Sequence record: NC_019715.1
Length of the DNA: 39,578 nt
Origin: Escherichia phage mEp234
Reading direction: 5' to 3' (one strand)
The notes beneath the pieces are model-generated. The model did no database searches, was not told the origin of the DNA, and worked only from the letters and a program-made list of their open reading frames with translations. The position numbers and the translations under genes are program-made. This document shows, piece by piece, positions 8,349 to 32,314 of the stretch. Numbering within the stretch: position 1 is the first letter of the stretch; each line of letters opens with the position of its first letter.

Positions 8349-8372
8349 ACCCGCTATCAAGCGGGTTTTTTT
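8349..8372 (+). terminator. stem-loop plus U-tract after gp15-like gene
   Basis: ACCCGCT-ATCA-AGCGGGT then TTTTTTT, immediately followed by ATGGGTGAAAATATG. Confidence 0.5.
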
Positions 8373-8384
8373 ATGGGTGAAAAT

Positions 8385-11651: not shown

Positions 11652-11653
11652 AA

Positions 11654-12747: not shown

Positions 12748-12748
12748 T

Positions 12749-13459: not shown

Positions 13460-13506
13460 CAAACTGTCACTGATACTATCGTGTAGTACACAGCAAGGAG
13501 AACGAT

Positions 13507-13731: not shown

Positions 13732-13746
13732 GAGCGTAAATTAACA

Positions 13747-13769
13747 AACCACCTACGGGTGGTTTTTTT
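13747..13769 (+). terminator. stem-loop plus U-tract after second membrane-protein gene
   Basis: CCACC-TACG-GGTGG then TTTTTTT, followed by ATGGGGGCAGCATG. Confidence 0.5.
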
Positions 13770-13780
13770 ATGGGGGCAGC

Positions 13781-14389: not shown

Positions 14390-14408
14390 ATAACTAACCT
14401 TTTTTCTG

Positions 14409-14430
14409 GCCACCTTCGGGTGGCTTTTTT
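14409..14430 (+). terminator. stem-loop (UUCG tetraloop) plus U-tract upstream of J
   Basis: GCCACC-TTCG-GGTGGC then TTTTTT, followed by ATGGGCGCAATATG. Confidence 0.45.
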
Positions 14431-14441
14431 ATGGGCGCAAT

Positions 14442-17400: not shown

Positions 17401-17897
17401 GCGAAAACAGTGCCGCGATAAATGTCAACGCACAGGCTATCGCAGATGTAAACGGTAACCTAAGTGCGATGTACAACATCAAGGTTGGTGTCTCCAGCAA
17501 TGGACAGTATTACGCCGCGGGGATGGGTATCGGCGTGGAGAATACGCCATCCGGCATGCAGTCGCAGGTTATCTTCCTGGCTGATCGCTTCGCCGTCACC
17601 ACGGCGGCCGGAAATAGCGTGGCTTTGCCGTTCGTGATCCAGAACGGGCAGACATTCATCCGGGCCAGTTTCATCCAGGACGGCACTATCAGCAACGCAA
17701 AGATTGGTAATTTTATCCAGTCGAACAATTATGTTGCTGGTTCTGCTGGCTGGAAGCTTGATAAAGGGGGGACGTTTGAGAACTACGGTTCGACTGCTGG
17801 TGAGGGAGCCATGAAACTGACAAATCAGACGATCAGCGTCAAAGATGGCAGTAATGTTCTTAGGGTGCAGGTTGGCCGATTAACGGGAGTATTCTGA
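14442..17897 (+). CDS. host specificity protein J (central tail fibre / tip attachment)
   Basis: 1151 aa; lambda gpJ-like size and position after I. Confidence 0.9.
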   Translation: MATDKVLKGRKGGSSSSRTPTEQPDDLQSVAKAKILVALGEGEFAGQLTGKDIYLDGTALENADGSQNFSGVTWEFRAGTQAQKYIQGIPGTENEISVGTEVSSATAWTRTFTNTQLSAVRLRLKWPSLFKQEDDGDLVGYSVNYAIDLQTDGGTWQTVLNTSVTGKTTSGYERSHRIDLPQAGSTWTIRLRKITSDANSAKIGDTMMLQSFTEVIDAKLRYPNTALLYVEFDSSQFNGSIPQISCEPRGRVIRVPDTYDPETRTYSGTWTGAFKWAWTDNPAWIFYDLVVSDRFGLGHRLTAANIDKWTLYQVAQYCDQMVPDGKGGNGTEPRYTCNVYIQDRNDAYTVLRDFAAIFRGMTYWGGDQIVALADMPRDVDYSYTRANVVGGRFTYSSSTTKSRYTTALVSWSDPGNAYADAMEPVFEQALVARYGFNQLEMTAIGCTRQSEANRKGRWGILTNNKDRVVSFDVGLDGNIPQPGYIIAVADELLSGKVMGGRISAVNGRVIKLDRVADAAPGDRLILNLPSGASQSRTIQAVNGESVTVTTAYSETPQAEAVWVVESDELYAQQYRVVSVSDNGDGTFSITGAWHDPDKYARIDTGAIIDQRPVSVIPPGNQSPPANIVISSFSVVQQNISVETMRVSWDQAQNAIAYEAQWRRNDGNWVNVPRTSTTSFDVPGIYAGRYLVRVRAINAAEISSGWGYSEEKTLTGKVGNPPKPVGFIASENVVFGIELNWGFPANTDDTLKTEIQYSLTGTEDDAMLLADVPYPQRKYQQMGLKAGQIFWYRAQLVDRSGNESGYTEWVRGQASIDVSDITDVILEDMKGSDTFKDLIENAVDSNEKIAGMADEIKNHADELEQQAKDIQENADGLAQAEVKIDEISVSMDGMTGGVKNSAIAIIQNGLAQVVSRRSQTATNAGNSASIDRIDTTIADTSSAVARALVTLDASAGGNISNSTDLTETLADFTQASATKINTLNVKSGENSAAINVNAQAIADVNGNLSAMYNIKVGVSSNGQYYAAGMGIGVENTPSGMQSQVIFLADRFAVTTAAGNSVALPFVIQNGQTFIRASFIQDGTISNAKIGNFIQSNNYVAGSAGWKLDKGGTFENYGSTAGEGAMKLTNQTISVKDGSNVLRVQVGRLTGVF

Positions 17898-17898
17898 A

Positions 17899-18201
17899 AT
17901 GGCTTATGGAATACAGACCTGGGATGCTTCAGGAAAACCCAACAACTATGGCATCAAACCCGTTTCCGTCGTTGGGCGAATACAGCTGGCTGCCGGGCAA
18001 ACCTCCGGCAGCTGGTCTTTTACGGTGCCCTCAGGAATGAAAGTTGGTTTTGTTCTTTCACTTGATGAAGGAGGTAACAGCGTAGGGCGGCGCATTGTCG
18101 CGTCAGGGAGCACAATAACCGTAAGCGCTGCATCTTCTGTAGGTCTGGGTAATTATCCGGCCTCAAAGTGTGAAGTGGTCGTTTTCATGGAGAAAGCATA
18201 A
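17899..18201 (+). CDS. hypothetical protein downstream of J
   Basis: 100 aa, ATG 2 nt after the J stop; N-terminal motif GIQTWDASGK recurs in the next protein. Confidence 0.5.
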   Translation: MAYGIQTWDASGKPNNYGIKPVSVVGRIQLAAGQTSGSWSFTVPSGMKVGFVLSLDEGGNSVGRRIVASGSTITVSAASSVGLGNYPASKCEVVVFMEKA

Positions 18202-18839
18202 TGGCCGAATTTGGCGCGATGATATTAATGGACAACGGGAACCCATTTGTAACGCCCCAGTCAACGCCTTTTTGTCTTTACGGCAAGTACACTTTCAACT
18301 CCTCTGCTAATGGCAGTTCGCAGCAGGTTGCTCAGAATATTGCATTAAATGCTGACTACCCTGTGATGGTATTTATCAGGACCACAAATACCGCCCAGCC
18401 CACGCCAGTAATATCTTACCGGAACGGCGGAAATATATATGTCGCGGGGGTTAATCCCTATAACCAGAGCTTCACGTTAACCGCATATATTTTTGCCATA
18501 TTTCCCCAGACGTTACCGAAATGGGGGATGGCCATCTGGGATTCGAGCGGGAAGCTGGTACTCACTAATGAGTCCCGCGTGCTGTCAGACTTGCAGACAA
18601 TCGGAACGCCTGGAGCAAACGGCGGGATTAACATTGACCAGACGCTTGATGGTTCATGGGCAGTGGCTCCATCAAGGCTGGGGCAAGTGAACAGAAACGA
18701 CGCTTACTCATCTTGTAGGTATTCAGGCACAAGTACAAGAATAAACGCCGGTACAGCCGCAAATACACCTGGCGGTGCTGGAGGGGTGATAAATAATGGA
18801 ATTATCCTGACAGCAATTAAAACAGACGCCTATGATTGA
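18201..18839 (+). CDS. hypothetical protein (possible tail-tip accessory)
   Basis: 212 aa, start overlaps the upstream stop (TAATG); contains AIWDSSGK, related to the N-terminus of the preceding protein; Gly/Asn/Thr-rich. Confidence 0.5.
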   Translation: MAEFGAMILMDNGNPFVTPQSTPFCLYGKYTFNSSANGSSQQVAQNIALNADYPVMVFIRTTNTAQPTPVISYRNGGNIYVAGVNPYNQSFTLTAYIFAIFPQTLPKWGMAIWDSSGKLVLTNESRVLSDLQTIGTPGANGGINIDQTLDGSWAVAPSRLGQVNRNDAYSSCRYSGTSTRINAGTAANTPGGAGGVINNGIILTAIKTDAYD

Positions 18840-18946
18840 TTGTTTTGAGCGATCAATAACAAATAATTTATCTATCTAATCAATTATATCCATCGATTAT
18901 GTATTGGTATCTTCGAAGCTACTGAATACCTCTGGATACTATCAAA

Positions 18947-19180
18947 ATGAAAAGGCTAATTATCTGCATAGCGGGCGCTTTAATGCTGTCTGGTTGCGCT
19001 GGTGTACTTGAGAAACAGAAACCGATTTGCAGCGGCACGGCATATATGGGTGGCCATGAGAATACCGTTATGATTTACGCCGTTCGAAAGCAAAACAACC
19101 AGACGCAATACCGGGCCGGATATCCCTTTAACTGGCGCTGGGTAAGTGCGAACACATTCACAAGCACGACATGTAAATAA
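18947..19180 (+). CDS. small lipoprotein (Cor-like superinfection-exclusion candidate)
   Basis: 77 aa; signal peptide with lipobox LSGC; AT-rich upstream region; sits between J and the side tail fibre, where lambdoid phages carry cor/lom-type genes. Confidence 0.5.
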   Translation: MKRLIICIAGALMLSGCAGVLEKQKPICSGTAYMGGHENTVMIYAVRKQNNQTQYRAGYPFNWRWVSANTFTSTTCK

Positions 19181-19197
19181 CTCATGATTTTCAATGC

Positions 19198-19224
19198 AAA
19201 CCTCGCCTCGGCGGGGTTTTTTAT
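19198..19224 (+). terminator. Rho-independent terminator after lipoprotein gene
   Basis: CCTCGC-CTCG-GCGGGG (one G:U) followed by TTTTTTATT; SD GGAG and ATG 19239 follow. Confidence 0.5.
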
Positions 19225-19238
19225 TGCCTGGAGAAAAT

Positions 19239-20507
19239 ATGCTTTATAACACTGGAACCATCGCCATTAACGGAAACAGCGCCACCGGCACGGGCACGAA
19301 CTGGACGGCAACCGCCAGCCAGGTTCGCGCTGGCCAGACGATTATCGTGATGTCTAACCCGGTGCAGCTGTTCCAGATTTCATCCGTGAACAGCGCCACG
19401 TCAATGACGGTTACGCCAGCTGCATCACCGGCGCTGAGCGGCCAGAAGTACGGCATTCTGGTATCAGACAATATCTCGGTTGATGGGCTGGCGCTGGCCA
19501 TGTCGCAGCTTATCAAGGAGTATGACGAGAATATTGGTGCGTGGGAGACGTTCGCCACAACCTCAGCCAACCAGAACATTACCGTTACGATCAATGGCAC
19601 CAGTTTATCAATCCCGGCTCTTGGGAAATTACTGCAGAAGGGGAGCAACGGAGCTTTGCCGGTTAATCAAGGTGGTACCGGCGCAACGAATGCCGCAGAC
19701 GCTCGCACAAACCTTGGTCTGGGAAGTGCGGCGACAAAAAACACAGGAGCGTCCTTCGGCGATGTAATGACAGTGGGGGCTTTTGGGCTGGGAAGCGTTG
19801 CGGACGGGTACTACTACGGTGCGCCAACGGGGTTTTACGGCAGCCCTCCGGATAACCCAAGCAGTGGCATTGGGGTAGCAACAATAAAGAGCGTTGTGGG
19901 TGGATATTCAACAGATTTATCCATGACCCTTGCATCCACAGCCCGCCTTTTTCTGAGAAATATCGGACCTGGTGGCGGCGGTCTATGGGCAGAATTTTAC
20001 AGCAACAGAAATACTACAACAGCTGCAGACGGAACCCTGAAAGTGGCATCCCCCATTGTTAAAATACTTCACGATGGTCGGCATGAAAACAATGATGAAT
20101 CTTATGGCTGCACAGTTACCAGGCTCGGGGTTGGTGAATATCTCATTGAAGGATGTACGGGGCTCAATTCTGATGCAGCCTGGGGTGGTATCGATGGCGG
20201 CTTTGACATCCCCAAAGATCGAAACAGGCAACCACTGATATGGCTGGACTATGAGATCAACGCTGACGGTTCGGTGCTGGTAAAAACCTATCATCGTACC
20301 CATCCTGACGCTCCAGTTTTTGCACGTAACGAGCGGGACGGATACGCCAGTGGTGACCCGATTGATATTCCTGCCGACCAGTTCGTGTCAGTACGTGTAG
20401 AGATGCCACGCGACAGTATCTGGCACCAGAAACAGAAGGAGATGCGGGAAGTGATGGAGGACGCTGAGCGTGGGCGCCAGCAAAATCAGCAGAATACCCA
20501 GTCGTAA
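19239..20507 (+). CDS. side tail fibre protein
   Basis: 422 aa from ATG 19239 (SD GGAG); N-terminus MLYNTGTIAINGNSATGTGTNW and PVNQGGTGATNAADARTNLGL are typical tail-fibre motifs. Track ORF 19194 starts inside the terminator. Confidence 0.75.
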   Translation: MLYNTGTIAINGNSATGTGTNWTATASQVRAGQTIIVMSNPVQLFQISSVNSATSMTVTPAASPALSGQKYGILVSDNISVDGLALAMSQLIKEYDENIGAWETFATTSANQNITVTINGTSLSIPALGKLLQKGSNGALPVNQGGTGATNAADARTNLGLGSAATKNTGASFGDVMTVGAFGLGSVADGYYYGAPTGFYGSPPDNPSSGIGVATIKSVVGGYSTDLSMTLASTARLFLRNIGPGGGGLWAEFYSNRNTTTAADGTLKVASPIVKILHDGRHENNDESYGCTVTRLGVGEYLIEGCTGLNSDAAWGGIDGGFDIPKDRNRQPLIWLDYEINADGSVLVKTYHRTHPDAPVFARNERDGYASGDPIDIPADQFVSVRVEMPRDSIWHQKQKEMREVMEDAERGRQQNQQNTQS

Positions 20508-21020
20508 AAATTATAACTGCCGCAACCATGCCGTATGCAAGAGCATGATTGCGGCCGACTAGCGAACGTTCGATAGTGCGAGTATTGAATGATTTCAAGC
20601 CGTTACCGATTTTACTATGTTTTCAGTAGAACGCTTAGACAAAACTGAGGCGCACAAAGCTTTGCACTGGATTGCAAGACTTTGTTCTATTCGATAGTTT
20701 AAGGTCGCTCACTCTACCTTTTCATCAAGCCAGTCCGCCCACCACAGCATCATTTCTCTGCGCTTAATGTAGCGGATGCCTCACTATCACATAGTGATGG
20801 TTCATTACTGCTTTGTAGAATGGATAGAGAACTGAGGATAAAAAGATATCCCAAAACCCCAAAATCTCATCTTTAGGATTTGCAGAAAGGGAGGCGTGAA
20901 CAGATACCTGCGCATGAAGACGGAACTAGTCCAGATGTGATATTTGTGGTGATCACATACATCATCAACGATGCTCGTTATGGTGAGTTTGATGACTACC
21001 CGCTGAAGTGAAAATAGTGT

Positions 21021-21316
21021 TGTGTACCAAATTGCGTACCAAACTAAAATCACAAATCATGAAACCCTTGTTCATGGCGGTTCTCAGGGGTATTGCGCGT
21101 AATCGTGAAAGAGGAAGGTAGGTTGTTTATCTGTGTCTGTCATTGTCTAGCATTGTCCACTGTAGTTAATTAACTGTCTGTTATAACTCGAAAAACAACC
21201 ATTTTTTCACCTGAGTATGTCTACTAACGTCAAATATAGTTGTTTACTGTGCGCTGTTGTCCATGTGATATTGTGTACCAGATGTGTACCAAACCATTAT
21301 TTCTGAGCGTACCAAA
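21021..21316. other. candidate attP region with integrase arm-type direct repeats
   Basis: Five same-orientation copies of GTACCA(A/G)A at 21024-21031, 21036-21043, 21275-21282, 21286-21293 and 21309-21316, flanking a ~230-bp AT-rich interval immediately upstream of int. Confidence 0.45.
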
Positions 21317-21324
21317 TATTATTT

Positions 21325-22503
21325 ATGGCTATAAGCGACACAAAACTGCGTACTATTTATGGTAAACCATATTCGGGCCCACAAGAAGTGGCTGATGCCG
21401 ATGGCCTCAGCGTACGAATTTCACCGAAGGGGGTCATCCAGTTCCAGTACCGCTATCGCTGGCATGGCAAGCCTAATCGACTTGGGCTTGGTCGATACCC
21501 ATCCCTGTCTTTGAAGGATGCCAGACAGATCACTGCTGACTTGCGAAAGCTCTATTTCTCAGGAACGGATCCACGCACTTATTTTGAAGAGAAGGTGGAG
21601 AACTCCATGACGGTCGCCCAGTGTCTCGACTACTGGTTCGACAATTACGTCTCTACAACTCTCAGAGAAAAGACCCAGGCACTTTACCGATCAACGGTTA
21701 TGAAGCGCATGCATGACGCCTTCCCTAATCGACCGGCATCTTCTATCACGGTTAAGCAATGGGTTGACCTGCTTACCGAAGAAGAAAAAGATAATCCACG
21801 CCGAGCAAGGCAGGTGCTAAGTCAACTAAGATCAGCAATTAGTTGGTGCATGCGGCGTCAGTTGATAGATAGTTGCGCAATTATGAGCATCCAGCCAAGG
21901 GACTTCGGCTCCCGCGCTGAGGTAGGGGATCGGGTACTGTCGTATCACGAACTGGCTAAGATTTGGCTTGCTATTGAAAGAAGCCGTGCGTCTACGTCAA
22001 ATAAGCTCCTTCATCAGATGCTTATGCTGTGGGGGGCGAGGCTCTCAGAGCTTAGGCTGGCAACAAAGACAGAATTTGACCTGCTGGACAACGTATGGAC
22101 CGTACCGAAAGAGCATAGCAAGATGGGTAATGTTATCCGCCGTCCAATCTTCGAACAAATTAAGCCTTTTCTCGAAAAGGCCATGACAACGTACAATGAT
22201 GTTCTTTTCCCTGGAGAAGACATAAACAAACCGATCAGCATCGCTGCAGCCAACCGATTCGTAAACAGAATAAGGGGAGGGATGGATCTAGGTTACTGGC
22301 GAACACATGATTTCAGAAGAACGCTTGTTACACGTCTGTCCGAGATGAATGTCGAGCCTCATGTTACTGAGCGAATGCTCGGTCATGAACTTGGCGGGAT
22401 AATGTCCGTATACAATAAACACGACTGGATAGAGGCTCAGCGCAAAGCGTATGAGCTTCACGCTGATAAATTGTTCTGGCACATCAGGAGCATTTCTGAT
22501 TAA
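21325..22503 (+). CDS. int: tyrosine integrase (P4-like, N-terminal DUF4102 arm-binding domain)
   Basis: 392 aa; N-terminal LSVRISPKGVIQFQYRYRWHGK; catalytic-region motifs (HDFRRT, MLGHE, SVYNKHDW). Confidence 0.9.
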   Translation: MAISDTKLRTIYGKPYSGPQEVADADGLSVRISPKGVIQFQYRYRWHGKPNRLGLGRYPSLSLKDARQITADLRKLYFSGTDPRTYFEEKVENSMTVAQCLDYWFDNYVSTTLREKTQALYRSTVMKRMHDAFPNRPASSITVKQWVDLLTEEEKDNPRRARQVLSQLRSAISWCMRRQLIDSCAIMSIQPRDFGSRAEVGDRVLSYHELAKIWLAIERSRASTSNKLLHQMLMLWGARLSELRLATKTEFDLLDNVWTVPKEHSKMGNVIRRPIFEQIKPFLEKAMTTYNDVLFPGEDINKPISIAAANRFVNRIRGGMDLGYWRTHDFRRTLVTRLSEMNVEPHVTERMLGHELGGIMSVYNKHDWIEAQRKAYELHADKLFWHIRSISD

Positions 22504-22675
22504 CGCCACCGTTAAGAATCCACCCTTCAACAGCTTCACGAAGGTATGATTTGGGGTGGGTTCTGACTGGCTTCGGAAATCCGTGCCGTTTGGTATAGTT
22601 CCAGATTGTCTGACGTGATGAAACACCGAGCTTGTTCATCACTTCTTTCTCAGGAATCAGGCTGGTATCGGTCAT
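22484..22675 (-). CDS. AlpA/Xis-family DNA-binding protein (putative excisionase)
   Basis: 63 aa; SD GGAG; winged-HTH signature KEVMNKLGVSSRQTIWNYTKRHGFPKPV; convergent with int and overlapping its 3' end by 20 nt. Confidence 0.65.
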   Translation of the reverse strand: MTDTSLIPEKEVMNKLGVSSRQTIWNYTKRHGFPKPVRTHPKSYLREAVEGWILNGGVNQKCS

Positions 22676-22754
22676 CTTAATTCTCCAGGCAAAAATAAAC
22701 CGCCATATAGCGGCTCTATCAGATATGTACAGGCCTCATCGAGTGTGAGGCGGG

Positions 22755-23099
22755 TTAGTCCTTGCGTAGCTCACTGATTCTTCTGTAAGTCTCTGGTGCT
22801 TTGTTCCCGTACGTCTTCATTTCAGACTTCAACAGAGCAACGAGGGGATCCCATTCGTTGAGGATGCCTTTGAATGCCGGAACGCGCTTTGCAACCTTGT
22901 CGAATGAATCTCTGATTTCTGGAATCTGCTCGACAAGTGCAACGCATCGTCTGAAATCGGCTGCGTCATGAGGAGCGCCGAAGTGATGACCATAGATATT
23001 CTTTTTCAGGCCACATGCGATTGAGGCAAGAGTTGCGCTACTGATGCCGACATCGCCAGTCGATAGCCATTTCAAAACCTTCATAGCCAAATCTGACAT
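22755..23099 (-). CDS. hypothetical protein (early-left operon)
   Basis: 114 aa, ATG with SD GGAG; no recognisable motif. Confidence 0.5.
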   Translation of the reverse strand: MSDLAMKVLKWLSTGDVGISSATLASIACGLKKNIYGHHFGAPHDAADFRRCVALVEQIPEIRDSFDKVAKRVPAFKGILNEWDPLVALLKSEMKTYGNKAPETYRRISELRKD

Positions 23100-23110
23100 T
23101 TCTTGTCTCC

Positions 23111-23136
23111 ATAAAACAAAACTCGCCGTAGCGAGT
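23111..23136 (-). terminator. stem-loop plus U-tract on minus strand
   Basis: ACTCGC-CGTA-GCGAGT followed (on minus strand) by TTTTGTTTT. Confidence 0.4.
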
Positions 23137-23191
23137 TCAGATAAAAGAAATCCCCGCGAGTGCGAGGATTGTTATGTAATATTGGGTTTAA

Positions 23192-23386
23192 TCATCTATA
23201 TGTTTTGTACAGAGAGGGCAAGTATCGTTTCCACCGTACTCGAACGGCGCTGTAGTTTGTCCATTCTTTCTTTTTTGTCTGGCGATCGTAATACTGAACG
23301 CCAGCACGGATGTTGAATCCGATATTTTCCCCGGCCTGAAACTCTCTTGCGGGCTTGTTTAGTCTTACAGTAATCGAATGTGCCAT
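23192..23386 (-). CDS. hypothetical protein translationally coupled to erf
   Basis: 64 aa from ATG 23384-23386, which overlaps the erf stop (TAATG) with SD GGAG; the track's longer 94-aa version overlaps erf and was not used. Sits where P22 carries abc genes, but the sequence is not recognised. Confidence 0.4.
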   Translation of the reverse strand: MAHSITVRLNKPAREFQAGENIGFNIRAGVQYYDRQTKKKEWTNYSAVRVRWKRYLPSLYKTYR

Positions 23387-23991
23387 TAAGCAGCCGCTCC
23401 TTCTAATTCGTCTCGTCTGATGTTGTAAACGTCCTGCGCTTTGTGCTGCTCCGGTGTTCCTTCGAGCATCTTCCACGCTTTGGCGAACGCCTGTTTAAGC
23501 TCTTCCACGGTGTTTTTTTGCATTGCTGCGTCAGTGAATGCTTTTAGAACCTGTTCAGGTGTAGGTGATGGTTTTGATTGCTTTGCTGCTGCGTTCTGCT
23601 GATGTTTATGTTCGTCGGTATCTGCATCTTTCGCATCATCAATGCCGAACAAACCATTAAGGCAATACTTGCGCGCATAAGAGCTTGTAGCTCCAGTAAC
23701 TTGTGCAGAATCCATTCCTTTCTTGCTTTCTTCCTCTCGTGCAAGAGCAGTTGCCGTATGACTGTTTTCGCCATCGGTAATAGTTGCCGTGGCTTTCACG
23801 TAATACCGATCACCAATCAACACAACTTCATCGCTGATTGATAAAAACAGGCCATTCAGTAACGGCTTAACGCCTTCAAGAATGTCTTCGCAGCTTCTGT
23901 ATTTATATTTACCGAATGAGTTGTACTGATTCTTTGGCGCGTTCAGATTCTCCTGAATAGCTGCCAGTCTTGCGTAAAATTCTTTGCTCAT
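23386..23991 (-). CDS. erf: ERF-family single-strand annealing protein
   Basis: 201 aa from ATG 23989-23991 (MSKEFYARLAAIQENLNAPKNQYNSFGKYKYRSCEDILEGVKPLL), recalled as P22 Erf-like; the track ORF starts at an upstream TTG. Confidence 0.75.
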   Translation of the reverse strand: MSKEFYARLAAIQENLNAPKNQYNSFGKYKYRSCEDILEGVKPLLNGLFLSISDEVVLIGDRYYVKATATITDGENSHTATALAREEESKKGMDSAQVTGATSSYARKYCLNGLFGIDDAKDADTDEHKHQQNAAAKQSKPSPTPEQVLKAFTDAAMQKNTVEELKQAFAKAWKMLEGTPEQHKAQDVYNIRRDELEGAAA

Positions 23992-24001
23992 ATGATTGTT
24001 C

Positions 24002-24172
24002 TCAGAATGGACACGGCCCAAGGAAATAACGCTGATTTAATACTTCAGTCTTTGCCGCATTTAAAAATACGCGAACACCTTCACGATCTCCCTTCTGGCG
24101 ATACATTAACGCCTGCTGCGTGTACATGCGTCTCTGTAACTTGCTCTCCTTCACTGTGGTTGCAAGTGACAT
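24002..24172 (-). CDS. small protein (arf-position, unknown)
   Basis: 56 aa (MSLATTVKESKLQRRMYTQQ...), SD GGAGATATTC before the ATG; ends 10 nt before the erf start. Below the track's 60-aa cutoff; translated by hand. Confidence 0.35.
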   Translation of the reverse strand: MSLATTVKESKLQRRMYTQQALMYRQKGDREGVRVFLNAAKTEVLNQRYFLGPCPF

Positions 24173-24247
24173 GAATATCTCCTTCGTTACCGATTAATTC
24201 TTTCATCTGACGAATGAATTCTTCGTCTGACCAGTTATCTGTAAAAC

Positions 24248-24400
24248 TCATTTCCTGCGATACAACGGAAGGTTGATAGCTGATTTCATCGCTTTATTTG
24301 CTTCAAACCACATTTTGGAATCACCAATAAATCTGGCTATTACTGCTTTGTTTTGTGCAGCACGAAGCATCTGATGATTTATGGCTATTTCATTGCGCAT
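24248..24400 (-). CDS. kil: Kil-like small protein (candidate host division inhibitor)
   Basis: 50 aa; IARFIGDSKMWFEA resembles the FIGD core recalled for lambda/P22 Kil; SD GAGGTC; overlaps cIII end. Confidence 0.4.
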   Translation of the reverse strand: MRNEIAINHQMLRAAQNKAVIARFIGDSKMWFEANKAMKSAINLPLYRRK

Positions 24401-24516
24401 AATAAGACCTCAACTCTTTTCCATCCGTCACGTAATTTACGGGTGATTCGTTCAAGTAAAGATTCATTTAGTTGGAAGGCACCCATGCGAGCGCCTCCCG
24501 CGATTGCGTAAATCAT
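24385..24516 (-). CDS. cIII: CIII-like protein (FtsH inhibitor)
   Basis: 43 aa; NESLLERITRKLRDGWKR matches the lambda CIII central helix as recalled; SD AGGAA. Confidence 0.6.
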   Translation of the reverse strand: MIYAIAGGARMGAFQLNESLLERITRKLRDGWKRVEVLLCAMK

Positions 24517-24540
24517 GGGTGGTTCCTTATGTTGGTTTTA

Positions 24541-25509
24541 TTAGTAGGTTATTTTTGTTGCGAATACTTCGCCTTTTACGATGGCTGTTATGATATTTTT
24601 AGCAACATCTTCTGATGCACCAACCTTGATAAGGTCAGCAAGTATTTTGTTATTTACTTCTTTCCGGTGAGCTTTATCCTTTGCTCTACGCTCTTCTTCG
24701 TCCTTGATTCTTTTTTCTTCTGCTATTCTGGCTTGCTCTTTTGCTTCAGCCTCGCGCCGGATTCGTTCTGCCTCCTCCTGTGCTTTTCGGCGTTCTGCTT
24801 CAATTGCCACCTGCTTTTCTCTTTCAGCTCGTTCTGCTGCCTCTTTTGCTTCGCGCTGTGCTCGTTGCTCGGCTTCAATGCGTTCACGCTCTGCACGTTC
24901 CGCTGCGGCCTTAGCTTCTGCTTCTCGCCTTGCTGCTGCTTCAATTTCGGCTTTTGCCTTTGCTTCGGCTTCAGCTCTGGCTTTCTCTTCAGCTTCTCTT
25001 TTTAAGCGTTCTTCATGCTCTCGCTTTTCCTGCTCCGCTTTGAGTCTTGCCTCTTCTCTTTGGCGGTCAAATTCGCGATCCATCAAAATCGCTATTTCAT
25101 GGTCAGACTCAATTTGCTTTGCGAGAGCTTCAGCTGCTGCCTTAGCTTCTTCTTCGGCTTTAATCCGTGCCTGCTCCTCCTCATAATCAGTAAGAGGCTG
25201 ACGCGCCTTGGCTTTCAGCTCATCAAGTCGATCACGCACTGTCTTGCGGTTGGCATCAATTAGCTTTGGAATTTCCTTCAGTTCAGCAACAAGGTCTTTT
25301 CCAAGACCATCGAGATATGTTTTCGTCTGCGCAACTTTATACGCCAGAGAAGCGATCTCCTTTCTGCCCTTTGCCGTTGTGATATCAGGCACAAAGGACA
25401 TAACTTCACGTTCAACCTTTTGGAGAATTTCTTCAATCTGGTCGGCAGACTGAAATACAGTCATTGCATTTGCTTTTTCAATAACAACTAAATCTGTTAC
25501 TTCACTCAT
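24541..25509 (-). CDS. DUF1351/Gp157-like protein with extended E/A/K/R-rich coiled-coil tract
   Basis: 322 aa from ATG 25507-25509 (strong SD GGAGGATAT); N-terminal ~110 aa globular, then ~180 aa of low-complexity EAKAAAE/RREAEAK repeats; family name is from memory. Confidence 0.5.
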   Translation of the reverse strand: MSEVTDLVVIEKANAMTVFQSADQIEEILQKVEREVMSFVPDITTAKGRKEIASLAYKVAQTKTYLDGLGKDLVAELKEIPKLIDANRKTVRDRLDELKAKARQPLTDYEEEQARIKAEEEAKAAAEALAKQIESDHEIAILMDREFDRQREEARLKAEQEKREHEERLKREAEEKARAEAEAKAKAEIEAAARREAEAKAAAERAERERIEAEQRAQREAKEAAERAEREKQVAIEAERRKAQEEAERIRREAEAKEQARIAEEKRIKDEEERRAKDKAHRKEVNNKILADLIKVGASEDVAKNIITAIVKGEVFATKITY

Positions 25510-25521
25510 ATATCCTCCGTC

Positions 25522-25548
25522 AAAAAAATTGCCCTCACACTGGAGGGC
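25522..25548 (-). terminator. stem-loop plus U-tract immediately upstream of DUF1351-like gene
   Basis: GCCCTC-cagtgt-GAGGGC then TTTTTTT on the minus strand, 13 nt before the SD. Confidence 0.45.
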
Positions 25549-25665
25549 AAAGAAGATTTCCAATAATCAGAACAAGTCGGCTCCTGTTTAGTTACGAGCG
25601 ACATTGCTCCGTGTATTCACTCGTTGGAATGAATACACAGTGCAGTGTTTATTCTGTTATTTATG

Positions 25666-25694
25666 CCAAAAATAAAGGCCGCCATCAGGCAGCC
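25666..25694 (-). terminator. stem-loop plus U-tract at 3' end of the 83-aa gene
   Basis: GGCTGCC-TGAT-GGCGGCC (one G:U) then TTTATTTTT on the minus strand; the gene's stop codon lies in the loop. Confidence 0.45.
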
Positions 25695-25936
25695 TTGTTG
25701 TAAATGTTGCAGGTATCAAGTAAGTAATTAGATGGAGCGCCATAAATTATGAATTCATCGTTTGTCGGGTCCATCTCCATCTCTTGGCCTATTGCCATTC
25801 TTGCGTCAGTGTCATCAGCGGCGAAGCATAAAACAGCCCACGCACCCATTGTTTTAAAAAGAACTGCAATTGGCTGTGGTTTTACTGAATTTGCGTTAGC
25901 GCGAAAATCACAAATCGCACTTTCATGAAATTCCAT
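25685..25936 (-). CDS. hypothetical protein (moron-like, between N and DUF1351 gene)
   Basis: 83 aa, SD GAGGTG; bracketed by its own terminator. Confidence 0.45.
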   Translation of the reverse strand: MEFHESAICDFRANANSVKPQPIAVLFKTMGAWAVLCFAADDTDARMAIGQEMEMDPTNDEFIIYGAPSNYLLDTCNIYNKAA

Positions 25937-25994
25937 ATATCACCTCAAATAAGTGGTTTGCTGCCTAATTTTATTTTCTGGCGACCAACACAAG

Positions 25995-26378
25995 TCACCT
26001 TGCTGTCAGTTGTTTTGATTTCCTGTAGCCTGCCGCGTAAAGAGCTACATTTGGAAGACATACACCAGTTTCTGGTTGCCTATGCCCAAACTCATTCGCG
26101 TACACAATGGCCGCTCTCTCCAGATTGCGTCTGTATTCTTTCTGTTGCCAGATCACGTCCTGTGCCATGAACTTAATTGGCTTAGCGTCTTCTATGCGCT
26201 CAGGCGTTTCGTGAGTACCTTTAGCCTGAATCTGCGCTCTGCTTAGAGTAGGGCGGTGTAATACTTCTGAACTTATTGCTTCTTCGCGGGCCAGTACGCC
26301 GTTAGCTAATGCCTTTGCCTTTAAACGCTCACGACGACGAGAACGTGAATTGCCTTTGAACTGAGTTCTGCGTGTCAT
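25995..26378 (-). CDS. N-like transcription antiterminator (P22 gene 24 type)
   Basis: 127 aa; arginine-rich motif near N-terminus (GNSRSRRRERLKAK); strong SD AGGAGGT; first gene downstream of PL with a boxB hairpin in its leader. Confidence 0.7.
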   Translation of the reverse strand: MTRRTQFKGNSRSRRRERLKAKALANGVLAREEAISSEVLHRPTLSRAQIQAKGTHETPERIEDAKPIKFMAQDVIWQQKEYRRNLERAAIVYANEFGHRQPETGVCLPNVALYAAGYRKSKQLTAR

Positions 26379-26543
26379 ATAGACCTCCTGATGAACTTTG
26401 GTGGTGTGGTAGGTGGGAGACCCATTTCGACCTGTTTCGGCCTACTTCAATTCGGCAATAGTCCCGCAGGCCTCGCCGCTTTACGTGCGACATATTCCCG
26501 TCCATGAACCCTTCACCACACCCCAAAGTTCACTTTGGTTATT

Positions 26544-26558
26544 GCGCTTTGTCAGCGC
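26544..26558 (-). promoter_or_regulatory. nutL boxB hairpin (P22 type)
   Basis: RNA GCGCU-GACAA-AGCGC in the PL leader; the GACAA loop is the P22-type boxB as recalled. Confidence 0.6.
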
Positions 26559-26622
26559 CGTAGATTCATCTCTGAATCGTTGTATATTCACCGCCCTGGT
26601 GAGTAGTGCGTCCTGCTGATGT

Positions 26623-26689
26623 GTTTAGTATCACCGCCAGTGGTATTTATGTCAACACCGCCAGAGATAATTTATCACCGCAGATGGTT
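26623..26689 (-). promoter_or_regulatory. PL promoter with operators OL1-OL3
   Basis: Minus strand -35 TTGACA (26650-26655), 17-bp spacer, -10 GATACT (26627-26632); 17-bp operators TATCACCGCCAGTGGTA (26629-26645), 26653-26669 and TATCACCGCAGATGGTT (26673-26689), matching lambda OL as recalled. Confidence 0.8.
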
Positions 26690-26840
26690 ATCTGTATGTT
26701 TTTTATATAGATTTATTTTTTTGCAGGGGTGTGTGGCTTGGGAGGTGATCGAGAGATCTGAATTGCGATGTTTAGTGAGTTGTATCTATTAATTTTCAAA
26801 TAAATACAATTGGTTATGTGTTTTGGGGCGAACGTGAGGC

Positions 26841-26867
26841 AAAGAAAACCCGGCGCGGTGGCCGGGT
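26841..26867 (-). terminator. Rho-independent terminator ending the cI-side accessory operon
   Basis: ACCCGGC-caccgc-GCCGGGT then TTTTCTTT on the minus strand, 7 nt after the stop of the 141-aa gene. Confidence 0.6.
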
Positions 26868-26873
26868 TGGAGA

Positions 26874-27299
26874 TTATTTTCTAGATGATGTTGGGGACCA
26901 AGGTAACGTTATAGTATCTAACACTGTGTTTTTGAACATATTTTCAAAAACTGTTTTTGTACATACATATACATAATTTTCAAAAAACCAAGCATTTTCA
27001 TTATAAAAATCCTCAGTTACTTCTTCATCGAGGTCACACTCAAATGTTAGTGTCAAGGTAGCCTCTGCCTTGAACAATACATCCTCACCATCATCAAAAT
27101 CTTTTTTATCGCGAGGGAAACCAGTTATCGATGGCTTAACTTCAATAAAGAGCCAATTTCCATCTTCATCTTTTTGAGGAACAACGTGATGCTCAGAAAA
27201 TTTTAAGCTATATTTTCCGCCTTCAGAATTATCACTGTCGTCGATAAAAAGGGAAGAACCCTCGAGATCAAATCCCTTAAAGCGAATTTTATCAAGCAT
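26874..27299 (-). CDS. acidic protein of unknown function, translationally coupled to hicB
   Basis: 141 aa from ATG 27297-27299, overlapping the hicB stop (TGATG); AT-rich coding sequence; no recognisable motif; the track ORF extends to an upstream TTG. Confidence 0.5.
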   Translation of the reverse strand: MLDKIRFKGFDLEGSSLFIDDSDNSEGGKYSLKFSEHHVVPQKDEDGNWLFIEVKPSITGFPRDKKDFDDGEDVLFKAEATLTLTFECDLDEEVTEDFYNENAWFFENYVYVCTKTVFENMFKNTVLDTITLPWSPTSSRK

Positions 27300-27772
27300 C
27301 AATGTGGCACTCCGTTGTCTACTGAAACTTCCCAATAGGTCTCTTCTGTACGTCTACGGGATGAGAAGAAAGTAACTTCTCTAACATCCCTCGGTTTTTC
27401 AAAGTGGTAGTGAACCTCTTTTTTCCCATTAACTGACTCACTGACAGCCTGTTTTACATAATCGTTTAAAGTCATATTCTTAGCTTTAGCAGCTAAATAT
27501 GCTTTTTTATGCAGGGATTCACCTATCCGGATGTTAAACGAACCACTCATTGTCTTATCTGGAGATTTTCCTATCTCTTCACAAGTGGAGAGGTAATCGT
27601 CCACGGCCTCCTCAAAGGCTGCACGGAGTTCTGCAACCGTTGCACCCTCATAAGTGACGAGATCATTTATACATTCGAGTTTTCCATGCATCACCCCATC
27701 TTCAAATGAAATGCTGGAGCTACCATAGTAACCTTTGTATTTCATCAAGTTATTCATGATCATCAATCTCAT
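27299..27772 (-). CDS. hicB: HicB-family antitoxin with C-terminal extension
   Basis: N-terminal MKYKGYYGS...DLVTYEGATVAEL...VDDYL (HicB fold), RHH-like IRIGESLHKKAYLAAKAKNMTLNDYV, then ~45 extra residues; four in-frame ATGs between 27745 and 27772. Confidence 0.7.
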   Translation of the reverse strand: MRLMIMNNLMKYKGYYGSSSISFEDGVMHGKLECINDLVTYEGATVAELRAAFEEAVDDYLSTCEEIGKSPDKTMSGSFNIRIGESLHKKAYLAAKAKNMTLNDYVKQAVSESVNGKKEVHYHFEKPRDVREVTFFSSRRRTEETYWEVSVDNGVPH

Positions 27773-28004
27773 CTAACAGCTGTTTAACTTCTTCCAAGAC
27801 GTACCTTTTGAGGGTGTTTTCAGGATGAGGCTCATGAAAAATGACCAATCTATCAACACGTTGGTTGTAAAATTTACGGCCAGAACCTCGTTTAGCATTC
27901 AAAAGCTTGAAGCCATACTGGTTCATGAGAGTAACGAACTCATCCCAAGTAAAATTTTTGGGTAAGCCGTCTAACTTTGACTTTAGCTTTTCCTTTCTTC
28001 CCAC
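27750..28004 (-). CDS. hicA: HicA/YcfA-family toxin-like protein
   Basis: 84 aa (GTG start); ...FKLLNAKRGSGRKFYNQRVDRLVIFHEPHPENTLKRYVLEEVKQL matches the HicA fold pattern as recalled; directly upstream of hicB. Confidence 0.65.
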   Translation of the reverse strand: MGRKEKLKSKLDGLPKNFTWDEFVTLMNQYGFKLLNAKRGSGRKFYNQRVDRLVIFHEPHPENTLKRYVLEEVKQLLDEIDDHE

Positions 28005-28164
28005 GAAGGATACATCCTCTGTTAAAGGTAGTGCAACTGAAATCTAGTTGCAAGCTATGCTATCTATAGACAAAATGTTTCATTGTTATATCAGAAGATA
28101 CCCGATCTGTTTCACCTTCAACTACTATAATTTGTTATAAGCTATCAACCGGTGGAACTGCGAA

Positions 28165-28263
28165 TTAGCCGCTGGGTGTTGCGTATCCATCGATGATAAA
28201 CCATGCCATAAACCCCATAGCTACGATGAACACCAAGATCGGAAACACTATACCAATTCTCAT
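28165..28263 (-). CDS. 32-aa hydrophobic peptide ORF (candidate small membrane protein)
   Basis: MRIGIVFPILVFIVAMGFMAWFIIDGYATPSG, ATG 28261-28263 with GGGAT upstream; lies in the 363-bp AT-rich spacer between cI and hicA; translated by hand. Confidence 0.3.
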   Translation of the reverse strand: MRIGIVFPILVFIVAMGFMAWFIIDGYATPSG

Positions 28264-28367
28264 GATTTTATCCCTGTCTACCCATGCTTCCTGGGCACCA
28301 GCGGCTCGTTACTCGGCATCACCCTTAATCCGCCGCCCCATGTGTTTGTTGTGATCCGTTGCTGGCC

Positions 28368-29084
<717 letters not shown>

Positions 29085-29091
29085 TTAAATC

Positions 29092-29157
29092 TATCACCGC
29101 AAGGGATAAATATCTAACACCGTGCGTGTTGACTATTTTACCTCTAGCGGTGATAAT
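29092..29157. promoter_or_regulatory. OR3-OR2-OR1 with PRM (leftward) and PR (rightward)
   Basis: OR3 TATCACCGCAAGGGATA (29092-29108), OR2 TAACACCGTGCGTGTTG (29115-29131), OR1 TACCTCTAGCGGTGATA (29139-29155); PR -35 TTGACT 29129-29134 and -10 GATAAT 29152-29157. Confidence 0.85.
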
Positions 29158-29172
29158 GGTTGCATGTACTAA

Positions 29173-29382
<210 letters not shown>

Positions 29383-29389
29383 GTAACAC

Positions 29390-29435
29390 CGCTCTTTTCA
29401 CAATGGACATTCGTCCTACGTCGCTGACAAAGCGA
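29390..29435 (+). promoter_or_regulatory. nutR (boxA plus boxB)
   Basis: boxA-like CGCTCTTTTCA (29390-29400) and boxB hairpin TCGCT-GACAA-AGCGA (29421-29435) just downstream of cro; the loop matches nutL. Confidence 0.6.
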
Positions 29436-29520
29436 GTCCCAATATATCTGACCAACTAAGGCCATATGCGTTTCCACGCATACCTTTCAACTAACTATTC
29501 ACTATTGGAAATCTTAAGAA

Positions 29521-29817
29521 ATGGAAAGAACAAGTTACAGCAAACTATCACAGCGTGACGTTGATCGCGCAGAAACAGATTTACTCATCAACCTGTCAAC
29601 GCTTACCCAGCGCGGTCTGGCAAAGATGATTGGCTGTCATGAATCGAAGATAAGCAGAACGGACTGGAGATTTATTGCTTCGGTCTTGTGTGCTTTTGGA
29701 ATGGCATCAGACATCAGTCCGATTAGCAGGGCTTTTAAGTATGCGCTTGATGAAATCACAAAGAAAAAATCCCCGGCCGCCACCGAGGATTTTAAGCAAA
29801 TTGATATGCAATTCTGA
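29521..29817 (+). CDS. cII: CII-like transcriptional activator
   Basis: 98 aa; HTH region and C-terminus ...KKKSPAATEDFKQIDMQF parallel lambda CII (...KKRPAATERSEQIQMEF) as recalled. Confidence 0.7.
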   Translation: MERTSYSKLSQRDVDRAETDLLINLSTLTQRGLAKMIGCHESKISRTDWRFIASVLCAFGMASDISPISRAFKYALDEITKKKSPAATEDFKQIDMQF

Positions 29818-29849
29818 GGGAATTACTGGATCAATCCACAGGAGTAATT

Positions 29850-30011
29850 ATGACAAAACGTCGTAAGAAATACCAGGAAAAAGAAGAGATTCGACACCCT
29901 GATTCACCTGAGGGATTAGTGGTAGCCGCAGCAAATAACAGGGCGTTCGCAGAGCGCCTTGTTGGTGTTTACAGACTAGCCAAAGCAGGAGTGAAGCATG
30001 GGCGTCGTTAA
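29850..30011 (+). CDS. small basic protein ORF between cII and the replication gene
   Basis: 53 aa (MTKRRKKYQEKEEIRHPDSPEG...), SD GGAG 6 nt upstream; overlaps the start of the next gene by 14 nt; translated by hand. Confidence 0.3.
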   Translation: MTKRRKKYQEKEEIRHPDSPEGLVVAAANNRAFAERLVGVYRLAKAGVKHGRR

Positions 30012-30888
30012 GTTAGCTGATTACAGGCATAACCCTGTACAACATCAGGAGGCATCCAGTATGGGGTATGTCTCTATACACCGCCAGTTTATGGACAGCA
30101 GGCTCTATAAGGACTCTCAGGCAGTACATCTTTGGCTTCACTTAATCCTCAAGGCTAATCACGAATCTACTGTCGTCAATACGGATATCGGTCCGATAAC
30201 TGTTGATCGCGGTCAGATGATAACTGGACGCCCGTCGCTGGTCAGAGAAACATTCATCCCCGACAACAAAGTTCGGAGCTTATTACGGACTTTTGAGTCG
30301 AAAGGGATGCTTAATATTTGCTCGATGGGGAAGAAATTTAGCCTGTTTACAATCGTTAAATATGACGATTTTCAGGCAAAAAATTGTCCAACGGTTGTCC
30401 AACGGTTGTCCAACGCAAACACCAGTAATGGCGCGGATCTCAGCGGAGATTGTCCAACGGTTGTCCAACGGTTGTCCATAAACAATAATATAAATAATAT
30501 CTCTAATACTGACGTATTAGAGAGTGCCACAGCAGACAAAAAGTCTGACAAGAAAAAACCTTCCGTTAGCTGTCAGGATGTTGTCGATGCTTACCACGAA
30601 ATCCTTCCTGAAGCGCCAAGAATCCGCGCACTGAATGACAAGCGTAAAAACCAGATCCGAACGTTCTGGCGCAAAGCCGGAGTGATAACCCGTCAGCTTG
30701 ACGGGCATGGGTTCACGATGCAGGACTGGAGAAATTATTTGAGCTACGTAGGCGAAAATTGCCGATGGATGTTCGAAGAGCGCCCAAACCATCAACGCGG
30801 AACCGTCTGGCACAAAAAGGGATTTGATTTCCTGCTTAACGATAATACCTACCTGAAAGTTCGTGAGGGTGAACACGATGACCGATAA
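29998..30888 (+). CDS. replication initiator (O-type) containing ori iterons
   Basis: 296 aa, SD GGAG; the coding sequence carries six 11-bp iterons, giving the repeated peptide CPTVVQRLS; precedes the helicase gene. Confidence 0.7.
   Translation: MGVVKLADYRHNPVQHQEASSMGYVSIHRQFMDSRLYKDSQAVHLWLHLILKANHESTVVNTDIGPITVDRGQMITGRPSLVRETFIPDNKVRSLLRTFESKGMLNICSMGKKFSLFTIVKYDDFQAKNCPTVVQRLSNANTSNGADLSGDCPTVVQRLSINNNINNISNTDVLESATADKKSDKKKPSVSCQDVVDAYHEILPEAPRIRALNDKRKNQIRTFWRKAGVITRQLDGHGFTMQDWRNYLSYVGENCRWMFEERPNHQRGTVWHKKGFDFLLNDNTYLKVREGEHDDR
30384..30480 (+). repeat. origin iterons (6 x TTGTCCAACGG in two clusters)
   Basis: Direct repeats at 30384-30394, 30395-30405, 30406-30416 and 30450-30460, 30461-30471, 30472-30480, with a 33-bp spacer. 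Confidence 0.8.
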
Positions 30889-32314
30889 TTTTTATGCGCC
30901 GCCCCATAGTATCGAGGCAGAGCAGGCGGTGATTGGTGGATTGCTTCTGGATGATGACAGCAGTGAGCGCGTCCAGAAAGTTCTGGCGATACTGAAGCCT
31001 GATTCATTTTACAGCCGACCACACAAAATCCTTTTCGAAGAAATAACCAGAATGCACCGGGAGCAAAAGCCAGTAGATGGGCTGACGCTTTTCGATGAAC
31101 TGGAGCGCAAATCGTTAACGGCGTCTGTTGGCGGTTTTGCTTATATCGCTGAGATCGCAAAGAACACGCCAAGCGCAGCAAACATCGTTGCCTATGCAAT
31201 GCAGGTTCGTGAAACCGCAATGGAACGCTACGCCATCAACCGCATGACTGAAGCGACGGAATTGCTCTATTCCCGCAACGGAATGACTGCAACGCAGAAG
31301 TACGAAGCTATTCAGTCGATTTTCACGCAACTGACAGACCATGCAAAAACCGGATCGCGTCGCGGCCTTCGCTCATTTGGTGAGGTCATGGAAGACTGGG
31401 TTAGCGACCTTGAGAAGCGATTTGACCCGTCAGGCGAACAACGAGGAATGAGCACAGGGATCCCATCGTTGGACAGGATGCTGTCACCGAAAGGTCTGGT
31501 AAAAGGCTCTCTGTTTGTCATTGGCGCTCGCCCTAAGATGGGGAAAACGACGCTATACAGCCAGATGGCAATCAACTGCGCAGTGCATGAGAAAAAGCCC
31601 GCTCTGATGTTCAGCCTTGAAATGCCAGGTGACCAGATACTGGAAAAACTGGTGGGACAGAAGTCAGGTGTTAACCCGAATATTTTTTACCTTCCGGCGA
31701 CAAATGACGCTGATGACGGCTATCAGGGTGATTACGATGGTGACTTCAACAGGGCGATCGAGACAGCCAATCGCTTGAGTGAAATCGACCTGCTTTACAT
31801 CGACGACACGCCGGGATTATCTCTGGCTCAAATCGTCAGCGAAAGCCGTCGAATCAAACGAGAAAAAGGATGCGTTGGCATGATTCTGGTCGATTACCTG
31901 ACGCTAATGACCGCTGAAAAGGCCGATCGCAACGACCTTGCATACGGCATGATCACCAAAGGACTGAAGAACCTTGCCAAAGAGCTTGATTGCGTTGTTG
32001 TGCTTCTGACACAGCTTAACCGCGCATTGGAAAGCCGAACCAATAAACGCCCATTACCATGTGACTCGCGCGATACAGGGCAGATTGAACAGGATTGCGA
32101 TTATTGGGTGGGGATCCATCGGGAAGGTGCTTTTGATGACAGTGTTCCACCTGGTGAAACCGAACTAATCCTTCGTCTCAACCGTCATGGCAATACCGGC
32201 ACGGTGTATTGCATTCAGGCAAATGGCGCTATTTATGACACAGACCAACAGTCTGCTGAAATGCGCCGCCGTGAACGCGAGGAACCGCAATCCAAGAAGA
32301 AAGGAGGATTCTGA
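30878..32314 (+). CDS. replicative DNA helicase (DnaB-like)
   Basis: About 480 aa; N-terminal DnaB-like domain, Walker A (GARPKMGKT), Walker B (ILVDYLTLM); ATG 30878 with GAGGGTG upstream (track starts at GTG 30863). Confidence 0.85.
   Translation: MTDNFYAPPHSIEAEQAVIGGLLLDDDSSERVQKVLAILKPDSFYSRPHKILFEEITRMHREQKPVDGLTLFDELERKSLTASVGGFAYIAEIAKNTPSAANIVAYAMQVRETAMERYAINRMTEATELLYSRNGMTATQKYEAIQSIFTQLTDHAKTGSRRGLRSFGEVMEDWVSDLEKRFDPSGEQRGMSTGIPSLDRMLSPKGLVKGSLFVIGARPKMGKTTLYSQMAINCAVHEKKPALMFSLEMPGDQILEKLVGQKSGVNPNIFYLPATNDADDGYQGDYDGDFNRAIETANRLSEIDLLYIDDTPGLSLAQIVSESRRIKREKGCVGMILVDYLTLMTAEKADRNDLAYGMITKGLKNLAKELDCVVVLLTQLNRALESRTNKRPLPCDSRDTGQIEQDCDYWVGIHREGAFDDSVPPGETELILRLNRHGNTGTVYCIQANGAIYDTDQQSAEMRRREREEPQSKKKGGF

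Follow-up and report, generated by a model that had tools for sequence, protein, structure and literature searches.

Phage mEp234 very probably carries a lambda immunity module, composed of OL1-3/PL, cI, OR1-3 and cro with hicAB in the place of rexAB, inside a backbone whose N, nutL, nutR and cII are of the H-19B/HK97/Stx-phage class, the joints lying in short linkers that the two parental types share. This arrangement lies in the window, by which we mean the whole stretch of DNA analysed (39,578 nucleotides), and nothing that we found contradicts the identification of its parts. The joining of a lambda cassette to H-19B-type sequence is already known as a published and annotated arrangement: the "immunity region" record EF120460 (Degnan et al. 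2007, Mol Microbiol 64:232, a paper cited in PMC11893012) already labels oL1-3, pL, +1, boxA and boxB of nutL, N, Timm, hicA, hicB, cI, oR1-3, cro, and boxA and boxB of nutR. The junction described here is therefore a rediscovery.

Identity of the region and its lambda-type operators

A megablast search of a phage collection with positions 25990-26720 returned mEp234 (EF120460 and PV340539) and HK106 at 100% identity and 100% coverage, and HK97 at 99.3% identity; in a search with the right-hand 24.6 kb, 75% of the query (6099-24579) was 100% identical to mEp234. The sequence thus comes from mEp234, an HK97-like lambdoid phage, and comprises its early-left control region, OL-PL-nutL-N. An Rfam scan of 25500-30500 at E <= 1 gave no match.

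The first-pass annotation had stated that OL1-3 and the -35 and -10 elements of PL match lambda, and the match proved to be exact. A matrix built from six annotated lambda operators was scanned over the whole 39.6-kb stretch and, together with the lambda annotation and EF120460, placed OL1 at 26629-26645, OL2 at 26653-26669 and OL3 at 26673-26689 (26629-26689 overall), each identical to its lambda counterpart at 17/17 positions. The same scan located OR3 at 29092-29108, OR2 at 29115-29131 and OR1 at 29139-29155 (29092-29155 overall); OR2 and OR3 are identical to lambda, and OR1 has one mismatch, G to A at 29146 (TACCTCTAGCGGTGATA here versus TACCTCTGGCGGTGATA in lambda). With scores of 13.6-22.5 bits these six operators are six of the seven top-scoring 17-mers in the 39.6 kb, and the matches are far beyond chance. 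The PL promoter occupies 26627-26655 on the minus strand, with a -35 hexamer TTGACA (26655-26650) separated by a 17-bp spacer from the -10 hexamer GATACT (26632-26627), both identical to lambda, and from 26693 to 26605 just two mismatches to lambda occur, at -6 and -4. Mapping of the EF120460 annotation onto the window, in line with the lambda identity, puts the presumptive PL transcription start at an A at 26620 (minus strand). The cI repressor (28368-29081, minus strand) is identical to lambda cI at 235/237 residues, the differences being T3A and K71N, and Cro presumably carries K39N relative to lambda Cro. The matrix scan, the promoter scan and the cI identity thus bear out the original observation of a lambda OL/PL, and both the identity of cI and the sequence and spacing of the operators are those of the lambda immunity group. 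The title of the 2007 paper by Degnan et al. and the EF120460 record imply that mEp234 would be homoimmune to lambda and so fail to plate on a lambda lysogen.

Elsewhere in the window, the lambda-operator matrix gives 14.0 bits to a perfect 17-bp palindrome, CATCACGTCAGGTGATG at 4553-4569, more than to the real OR2 (13.6 bits). This palindrome is close to the left genome end, a long way from the immunity region, and is probably a chance match.

Two joints flank the lambda cassette

We drew up a blastn segment map of 25000-31000 with lambda, H-19B, HK97, Stx2-86 and P22 as references. Similarity to lambda covers 26588-26868 (89.7%) and 28372-29396 (97.7%); similarity to H-19B covers 25934-26870 (82.5% over 960 aligned columns, poor across the OL/PL operators) and 29375-29857 (95.2%); and similarity to Stx2-86 covers 25934-26621 (98.1%). 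Alignment to lambda, P22 and phage 21 revealed that the leader is not contiguous lambda sequence and that N is not lambda N. The junction that had been claimed at the start of the leader is therefore a true mosaic joint, but its breakpoint is not simply the end of lambda identity, since the alignments show that a 17-mer, CATCAGCAGGACGCACT (26605-26621, minus strand; -1 to +16 of PL), is common to both parents. This 17-mer is found in lambda, H-19B and HK97 alike, and its first 14 nucleotides (CATCAGCAGGACGC, 26608-26621, made up of position -1 and the first 13 transcript nucleotides) are invariant in these three and identical also in Stx2-86, P22 and phage 21. Identity to lambda, which had been said to end about 10 nucleotides into the transcript, actually runs to +16 (AUCAGCAGGACGCACU). 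From -1 on, H-19B and Stx2-86 read CATCAGCAGGACGCA(C/T)TACTCACCAGGGCGGTGAATATACAACG..., the same as mEp234, whereas lambda diverges after CATCAGCAGGACGCACT; before the 17-mer, the promoters of H-19B and Stx2-86 contain operators that are unrelated. Matches to Stx phages start at query 100-102, that is at 26621-26619, and partial matches in E. coli genomes either begin at query 67-72 or stop at 87-103. Because CATCAGCAGGACGCACT is present in both parental types, we place the left crossover somewhere inside 26605-26621, the interval to which it can be confined.

On the right, cro (29182-29382, plus strand) is of lambda type, and the alignments put the crossover in its last two codons, at about 29375-29376, immediately 5' of the nutR boxA. 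The sequence is of lambda type up to about 29375, H-19B has the same base as mEp234 at each of the three mismatches to lambda (29376, 29383 and 29388), and the block CTGCATAAGTAACACCGCT, which spans the end of cro and boxA, is identical to H-19B. The nutR site (29390-29435, plus strand) consists of boxA (CGCUCUUUU, 29390-29398), a spacer hairpin GGAC-AUUC-GUCC (29405-29416) predicted by folding, and boxB (29421-29435; UCGCUGACAAAGCGA, UCGCU-GACAA-AGCGA), whose GACAA loop is that of nutL, just as had been noted for the site after cro. It is identical to the H-19B nutR save for one boxA base, and its boxA and boxB are annotated in EF120460. The adjoining cII gene (29521-29817, plus strand; Pfam PF05269) is of H-19B/HK97 type, not lambda type, with 95% nucleotide identity to H-19B over 29375-29857. 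The earlier proposal that the immunity cassette was exchanged between the nut sites holds up well, in that both nut sites lie outside the lambda-like segments and the joints fall at the PL start and the cro end. From the positions of the joints it follows that nutL, nutR, N and cII belong to the H-19B/HK97-type backbone, with the lambda cassette between them.

The lambda-specificity cassette is itself mosaic as judged from its gene content, hicAB and one open reading frame (ORF) replacing rexA/rexB between Timm and cI. Timm, a terminator-like hairpin that ends the cI operon, lies at 26847-26868 (minus strand; EF120460 and scan), and the cargo at the rexAB position (26874-28004, minus strand) comprises hicA (27750-28004), hicB (27299-27772; Pfam PF07927 and PF05534 for the pair) and an ORF at 26874-27335. 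This ORF, 153 amino acids long in the ORF list and 141 in GenBank, has no Pfam match, and blastn found no similarity to lambda between 26868 and 28372.

Beyond N in the early-left operon lies an ORF of 340 residues (24541-25563, minus strand) with a very high content of Glu, Ala, Lys and Arg repeats; the annotated features under the match to PV340539 include a "TolA" product. The replication module at 29998-32314 is not lambda O/P; it encodes a 296-residue initiator and a 483-residue DnaB-like helicase, and PV340539, HK106 and HK97 label their counterparts as O/gene-18-like and DnaB-like helicases.

The conserved start of the PL transcript

To the reference phages and mEp234 we added 120 exact matches to the 14-mer listed from IMG/VR (loci L007-L126), giving 127 instances; among these, 76 are lambdoid PL starts and the remainder are chance matches. 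Among the PL starts in the matches listed, at least 27 promoter/operator classes lie before the 14-mer and no fewer than 12 candidate boxB types after it, and the two are combined in many ways. The lambda OL/PL class is followed by a GACAA boxB in at least 14 cases and by lambda's own GAAGA boxB in at least two, and GACAA boxBs stand behind at least nine operator classes, again among the matches listed; one locus (L122) with a slightly divergent lambda-like OL/PL has a boxB of the GGCUGAAAAGCC type. A second set, assembled through N, contains 80 loci (L128-L207) whose N proteins reach 98% identity or more. Of 79 of these N-found loci, 62 have the exact 14-mer and the rest have 1-nucleotide variants, and the same leader and N occur behind at least five operator classes. 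Of 5,426 complete E. coli genomes, 111 contain the mEp234 junction (coverage of at least 80%) and 488 contain lambda's own, so that, contrary to expectation, the mEp234 junction is the rarer of the two.

How the joints arose can be judged from where they lie. Homologous recombination at the shared linkers appears the most likely route, a reading taken solely from the positions of the breakpoints. The alternative that survives best is that the joints were made by illegitimate recombination followed by selection, the 14-17-mer being conserved as initial transcribed sequence or 5' leader RNA and not as a recombination substrate. This would fit the invariance of the 14-mer behind at least 27 unrelated operator sets among the matches listed and its exact form in most loci found through N, a near-invariance that points to purifying selection; it would also fit the part that the 14-mer plays in P22/phage 21-type leaders, where it forms a 5'-terminal stem (AUCAGC/GCUGGU). 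At either end of the cassette, however, the breakpoint falls in shared sequence, as homology-driven exchange predicts, and the two ideas are compatible rather than exclusive. We regard illegitimate joining as possible but clearly the less probable, and homologous exchange at the linkers as the preferred explanation.

The 5'-terminal stem of the P22/phage 21-type leaders (L004, which is P22, L127, which is phage 21, L036, L084 and others) reads AUCAGC-AGGAC-GCUGGU and forms because UGG(U/A) comes after the 14-mer; leaders of the lambda and H-19B types, in which ACU... follows, are without it. A further and rather unlikely idea is that the near-invariant 14-nucleotide start of the PL transcript, AUCAGCAGGACGC, and the pre-boxA hairpin described below together make up an uncharacterised early-left leader element that might act in promoter escape, RNA stability or control of the N leader, and that perhaps serves in general as the place where immunity and antitermination modules cross over. 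In full-text searching the 14-mer turned up only in vector and primer listings, and no paper on its conservation was found.

Affinities of N and nutL

N (25995-26378, minus strand) is a 127-residue antitermination protein of the H-19B/HK97 class according to the ORF list, Pfam and EF120460, and is preceded by a Shine-Dalgarno sequence, AGGAGG, read at 26384-26389 (minus strand). It is 98% identical to H-19B N and carries the arginine-rich motif 12-RSRRRER-18, which agrees with the earlier statement that its motif differs from that of lambda N; in Pfam it hits the family of the P22 N peptide (PF25694) with 57.8 bits, the gathering cut-off being 27.9, and it does not match PF11438 (N36), the family to which lambda N belongs. 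A phmmer search of N against PDB chains gave no match.

As had been noted, the leader diverges from lambda towards a boxB with a GACAA loop. This boxB (GCGCUGACAAAGCGC, GCGCU-GACAA-AGCGC; 26544-26558, minus strand) was located by folding and by the EF120460 annotation; it is identical to the nutL boxB of P22 and of H-19B and differs from the lambda boxB GCCCUGAAGAAGGGC. It is preceded by a 35-nucleotide stretch with a hairpin, the predicted 16-nucleotide spacer hairpin GAUUCA-GAGA-UGAAUC (26563-26578, minus strand); in the loci found through N the spacer stem GATTC/GAATC is invariant and the loop occurs in five versions. In a scan of the leader, no 9-mer 5' of boxB matches the canonical boxA GCTCTTTAA at 7/9 or more positions, the best reaching 5/9, and a boxA scan that allowed two mismatches gave 402 matches over the whole stretch, too many to discriminate. 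Positions 26579-26587 read AAUAUACAACG where related leaders have (A)UGCUCUUUAACA after the first hairpin. In EF120460, CGCACTACT (+11 to +19, 26602-26610) is labelled as the nutL boxA; this call is doubtful on sequence comparison, because lambda carries CGCACTGAC at that position and has its real boxA further downstream.

The N and nutL of mEp234 had been described as P22-type. One part of this description stands, since the nutL boxB is identical to the P22 boxB-left at 15/15 positions and N falls in PF25694; the other part does not, N being 98% identical to H-19B N versus 39-45% to its P22 counterpart, and the layout of nutL being different. Import of the N/nutL module from P22 or a P22-like Salmonella phage is accordingly very improbable. 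Besides the shared 15-mer with its GACAA pentaloop and the membership in a P22-based Pfam family, such a descent could draw on the C-terminal 33 residues of N, which are 67% identical to P22 gp24 (the sole segment aligned by BLASTP), and on the resemblance of the arginine-rich motif GNSRSRRRERLKAKAL to P22 GNAKTRRHERRRKLAI. P22 gene 24 (N), with 100 residues, does have a related arginine-rich motif and C-terminus, but at E <= 1e-3 blastn aligned neither the leader nor N with P22 DNA, nucleotide homology to P22 being limited to the 14-mer and boxB, and over the whole length N is only 39-45% identical to gp24 in two MAFFT alignments. The P22 nutL, moreover, has a canonical boxA (CGCTCTTTA) and a short, unstructured spacer of 9 nucleotides, both of which are missing from the nutL of mEp234, and this leader and N are found, 98-100% identical, in phages of E. 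coli. Direct descent of N and nutL from P22 is refuted by the absent P22 DNA similarity and the low identity of N. The phage 21 nutL resembles that of P22 in having a canonical boxA and then a short spacer. We conclude from these alignments that the N/nut module is of the H-19B/HK97/Stx-phage class.

From the 98% identity to H-19B N, antitermination by mEp234 N at its own nut sites would be expected. H-19B N reportedly needs fewer host factors, a point attributed to Neely and Friedman in 2000. PMC3526286, from the Sen laboratory, describes two hairpins in the H-19B nutR, and states that H-19B N, with the motif 12-RSRRRER-18, antiterminates at the H-19B nutR with NusA and NusG, mutants in the motif being defective.

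Hairpins in the PL leader

Folding of the 85-nucleotide PL leader predicted three hairpins, one before the spacer, one in the spacer and boxB (z = -2.65). The first, TCACCGCCCTGGTGA (26588-26602, minus strand), corresponds to the RNA UCACC-AGGGC-GGUGA, which spans +19 to +33 in the transcript from PL. In a longer leader RNA of 251 nucleotides (z = -3.89), a long-range stem spanning 26396-26528 (minus strand) is predicted, in which CUUUGGGGUGUGGUG (26528-26514) pairs with ACCACACCACCAAAG (about 26410-26396). It has the position of the lambda N-leader stem, which is processed by RNase III, and both of its arms are partly conserved with lambda; by analogy, it may play the role of that stem.

The first-pass annotation called the palindrome at 26588-26602 degenerate and operator-like. 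The palindrome is real, but on the lambda-operator matrix none of its 17-mers exceeds 1.9 bits (about rank 251 in the stretch), as against 13.6-22.5 bits for the real operators, and phages of other immunities carry it. That it is a fourth, degenerate cI/Cro operator 3' of PL, made at or kept by the junction, is hardly credible: one arm, TTCACCGC, resembles by eye the lambda consensus half-site TATCACCGC, and the palindrome lies 3 bp from the shared 17-mer, but its arms are 2 bp farther apart than the half-sites of a 17-bp operator, so that two consensus half-sites would be out of register, the identical palindrome occurs downstream of the H-19B and Stx2-86 promoters with their unrelated operators, the lambda counterpart is not annotated as an operator, and hairpins with different stems occupy the same place in other leaders. 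In lambda the palindrome aligns with CACCAUGAAGGUGA / CACCATGAAGGTGA, directly 5' of the lambda boxA, and CACCATGAAGGTGA is absent from the operators annotated in the lambda record. On its sequence context and predicted fold, the palindrome is an RNA hairpin and not an operator.

In a sample of lambdoid PL leaders among the matches listed, a hairpin is present at this place in 12 of 19 leader sequence classes and absent from seven. The 12 hairpins end 0-2 nucleotides before boxA, with shuffle p values of 0.01-0.12 each, which is moderate support. By class, the stems include CACC/GGUG, CCAACA/UGUUGG, UCAC/GUGA, GAGAC/GUCUC, GCAAC/GUUGC, GCCAC/GUGGC and GCCAA/UUGGC; they covary, and the loops are rich in A and G (AGGAC, AGGGC, AUGAA, AAGGAA.., AACGGAA..). 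Leaders with the pre-boxA hairpin include L001, L004, L026, L030, L059, L065, L080, L095 and L110, and those without it keep an ACGGA or AAGGA motif at the same spot.

Discussion

We propose that the lambda-type repressor cassette and the H-19B-type antitermination module operate side by side in mEp234. In this model, cI and Cro would act on DNA at the lambda operators, and transcription from PL would begin at 26620, the nascent RNA folding into the hairpin before the spacer, the spacer hairpin and the GACAA-loop boxB. By analogy with H-19B, N made from the same transcript would bind boxB through RSRRRER and, with NusA and NusG, render RNA polymerase resistant to termination, and the same N would read the boxB of nutR, which has the identical loop. 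The cassette would have been exchanged by homologous recombination at the conserved linkers, namely the 17-mer at the PL start and the end of cro with boxA, and selection would afterwards have kept N matched to both nut sites. Such a mosaic would be viable because the specificities of repressor and operator (DNA) and of N and boxB (RNA) are independent and both nut sites stay with N. Among the phages aligned (lambda, H-19B and Stx2-86), the nearest relatives of either module show about 95-98% identity to it, and the exchange could have run in either direction.

The region is a modular exchange of textbook quality, in which repressor/operator and N/boxB specificities reassort independently and the swap points lie in short shared sequences. 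For the annotation of prophages it means that "lambda immunity" does not imply "lambda N", and it is useful for picking orthogonal parts for synthetic circuits. It brings no conceptual change, because the junction had already been sequenced, annotated and published.

Among known systems, the closest are the records of the wild lambda-immunity phages HK97, HK106 and mEp234, which are 99-100% identical to one another here and in which the lambda-type OL/PL, cI and cro are joined to the same N, nutL and nutR. EF120460 has the same hicAB cargo as the window and shows no difference from mEp234; the immunity record of HK106 is EF120461. The HK97 genome record (AF069529) shows the same arrangement, with gp48/gp49 in place of hicAB and a 1-nucleotide deletion after the first leader hairpin; the reference for HK97 is said to be Juhala et al. 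of 2000. The Stx1 phage H-19B, the subject of work by Neely and Friedman (1998, 2000) and the Sen laboratory, is close in its N (98% identical), in a nutL leader that is near-identical from PL +1, and in nutR and cII (95%), and in both phages boxB has a GACAA loop and the spacer contains a hairpin; H-19B differs in what precedes the shared 17-mer, namely a repressor, cro and operators of its own. Hybrids such as lambda imm434 and lambda imm21, and the modular theory, provide the precedent for a repressor-operator-cro cassette that is swapped as a unit between conserved flanks, and OM418625 ("Lambda imm21") is among the sequence matches. When the immunity region moves in the imm21 hybrids, N and nutL go with it; mEp234 differs in that N and both nut sites remain part of the backbone.
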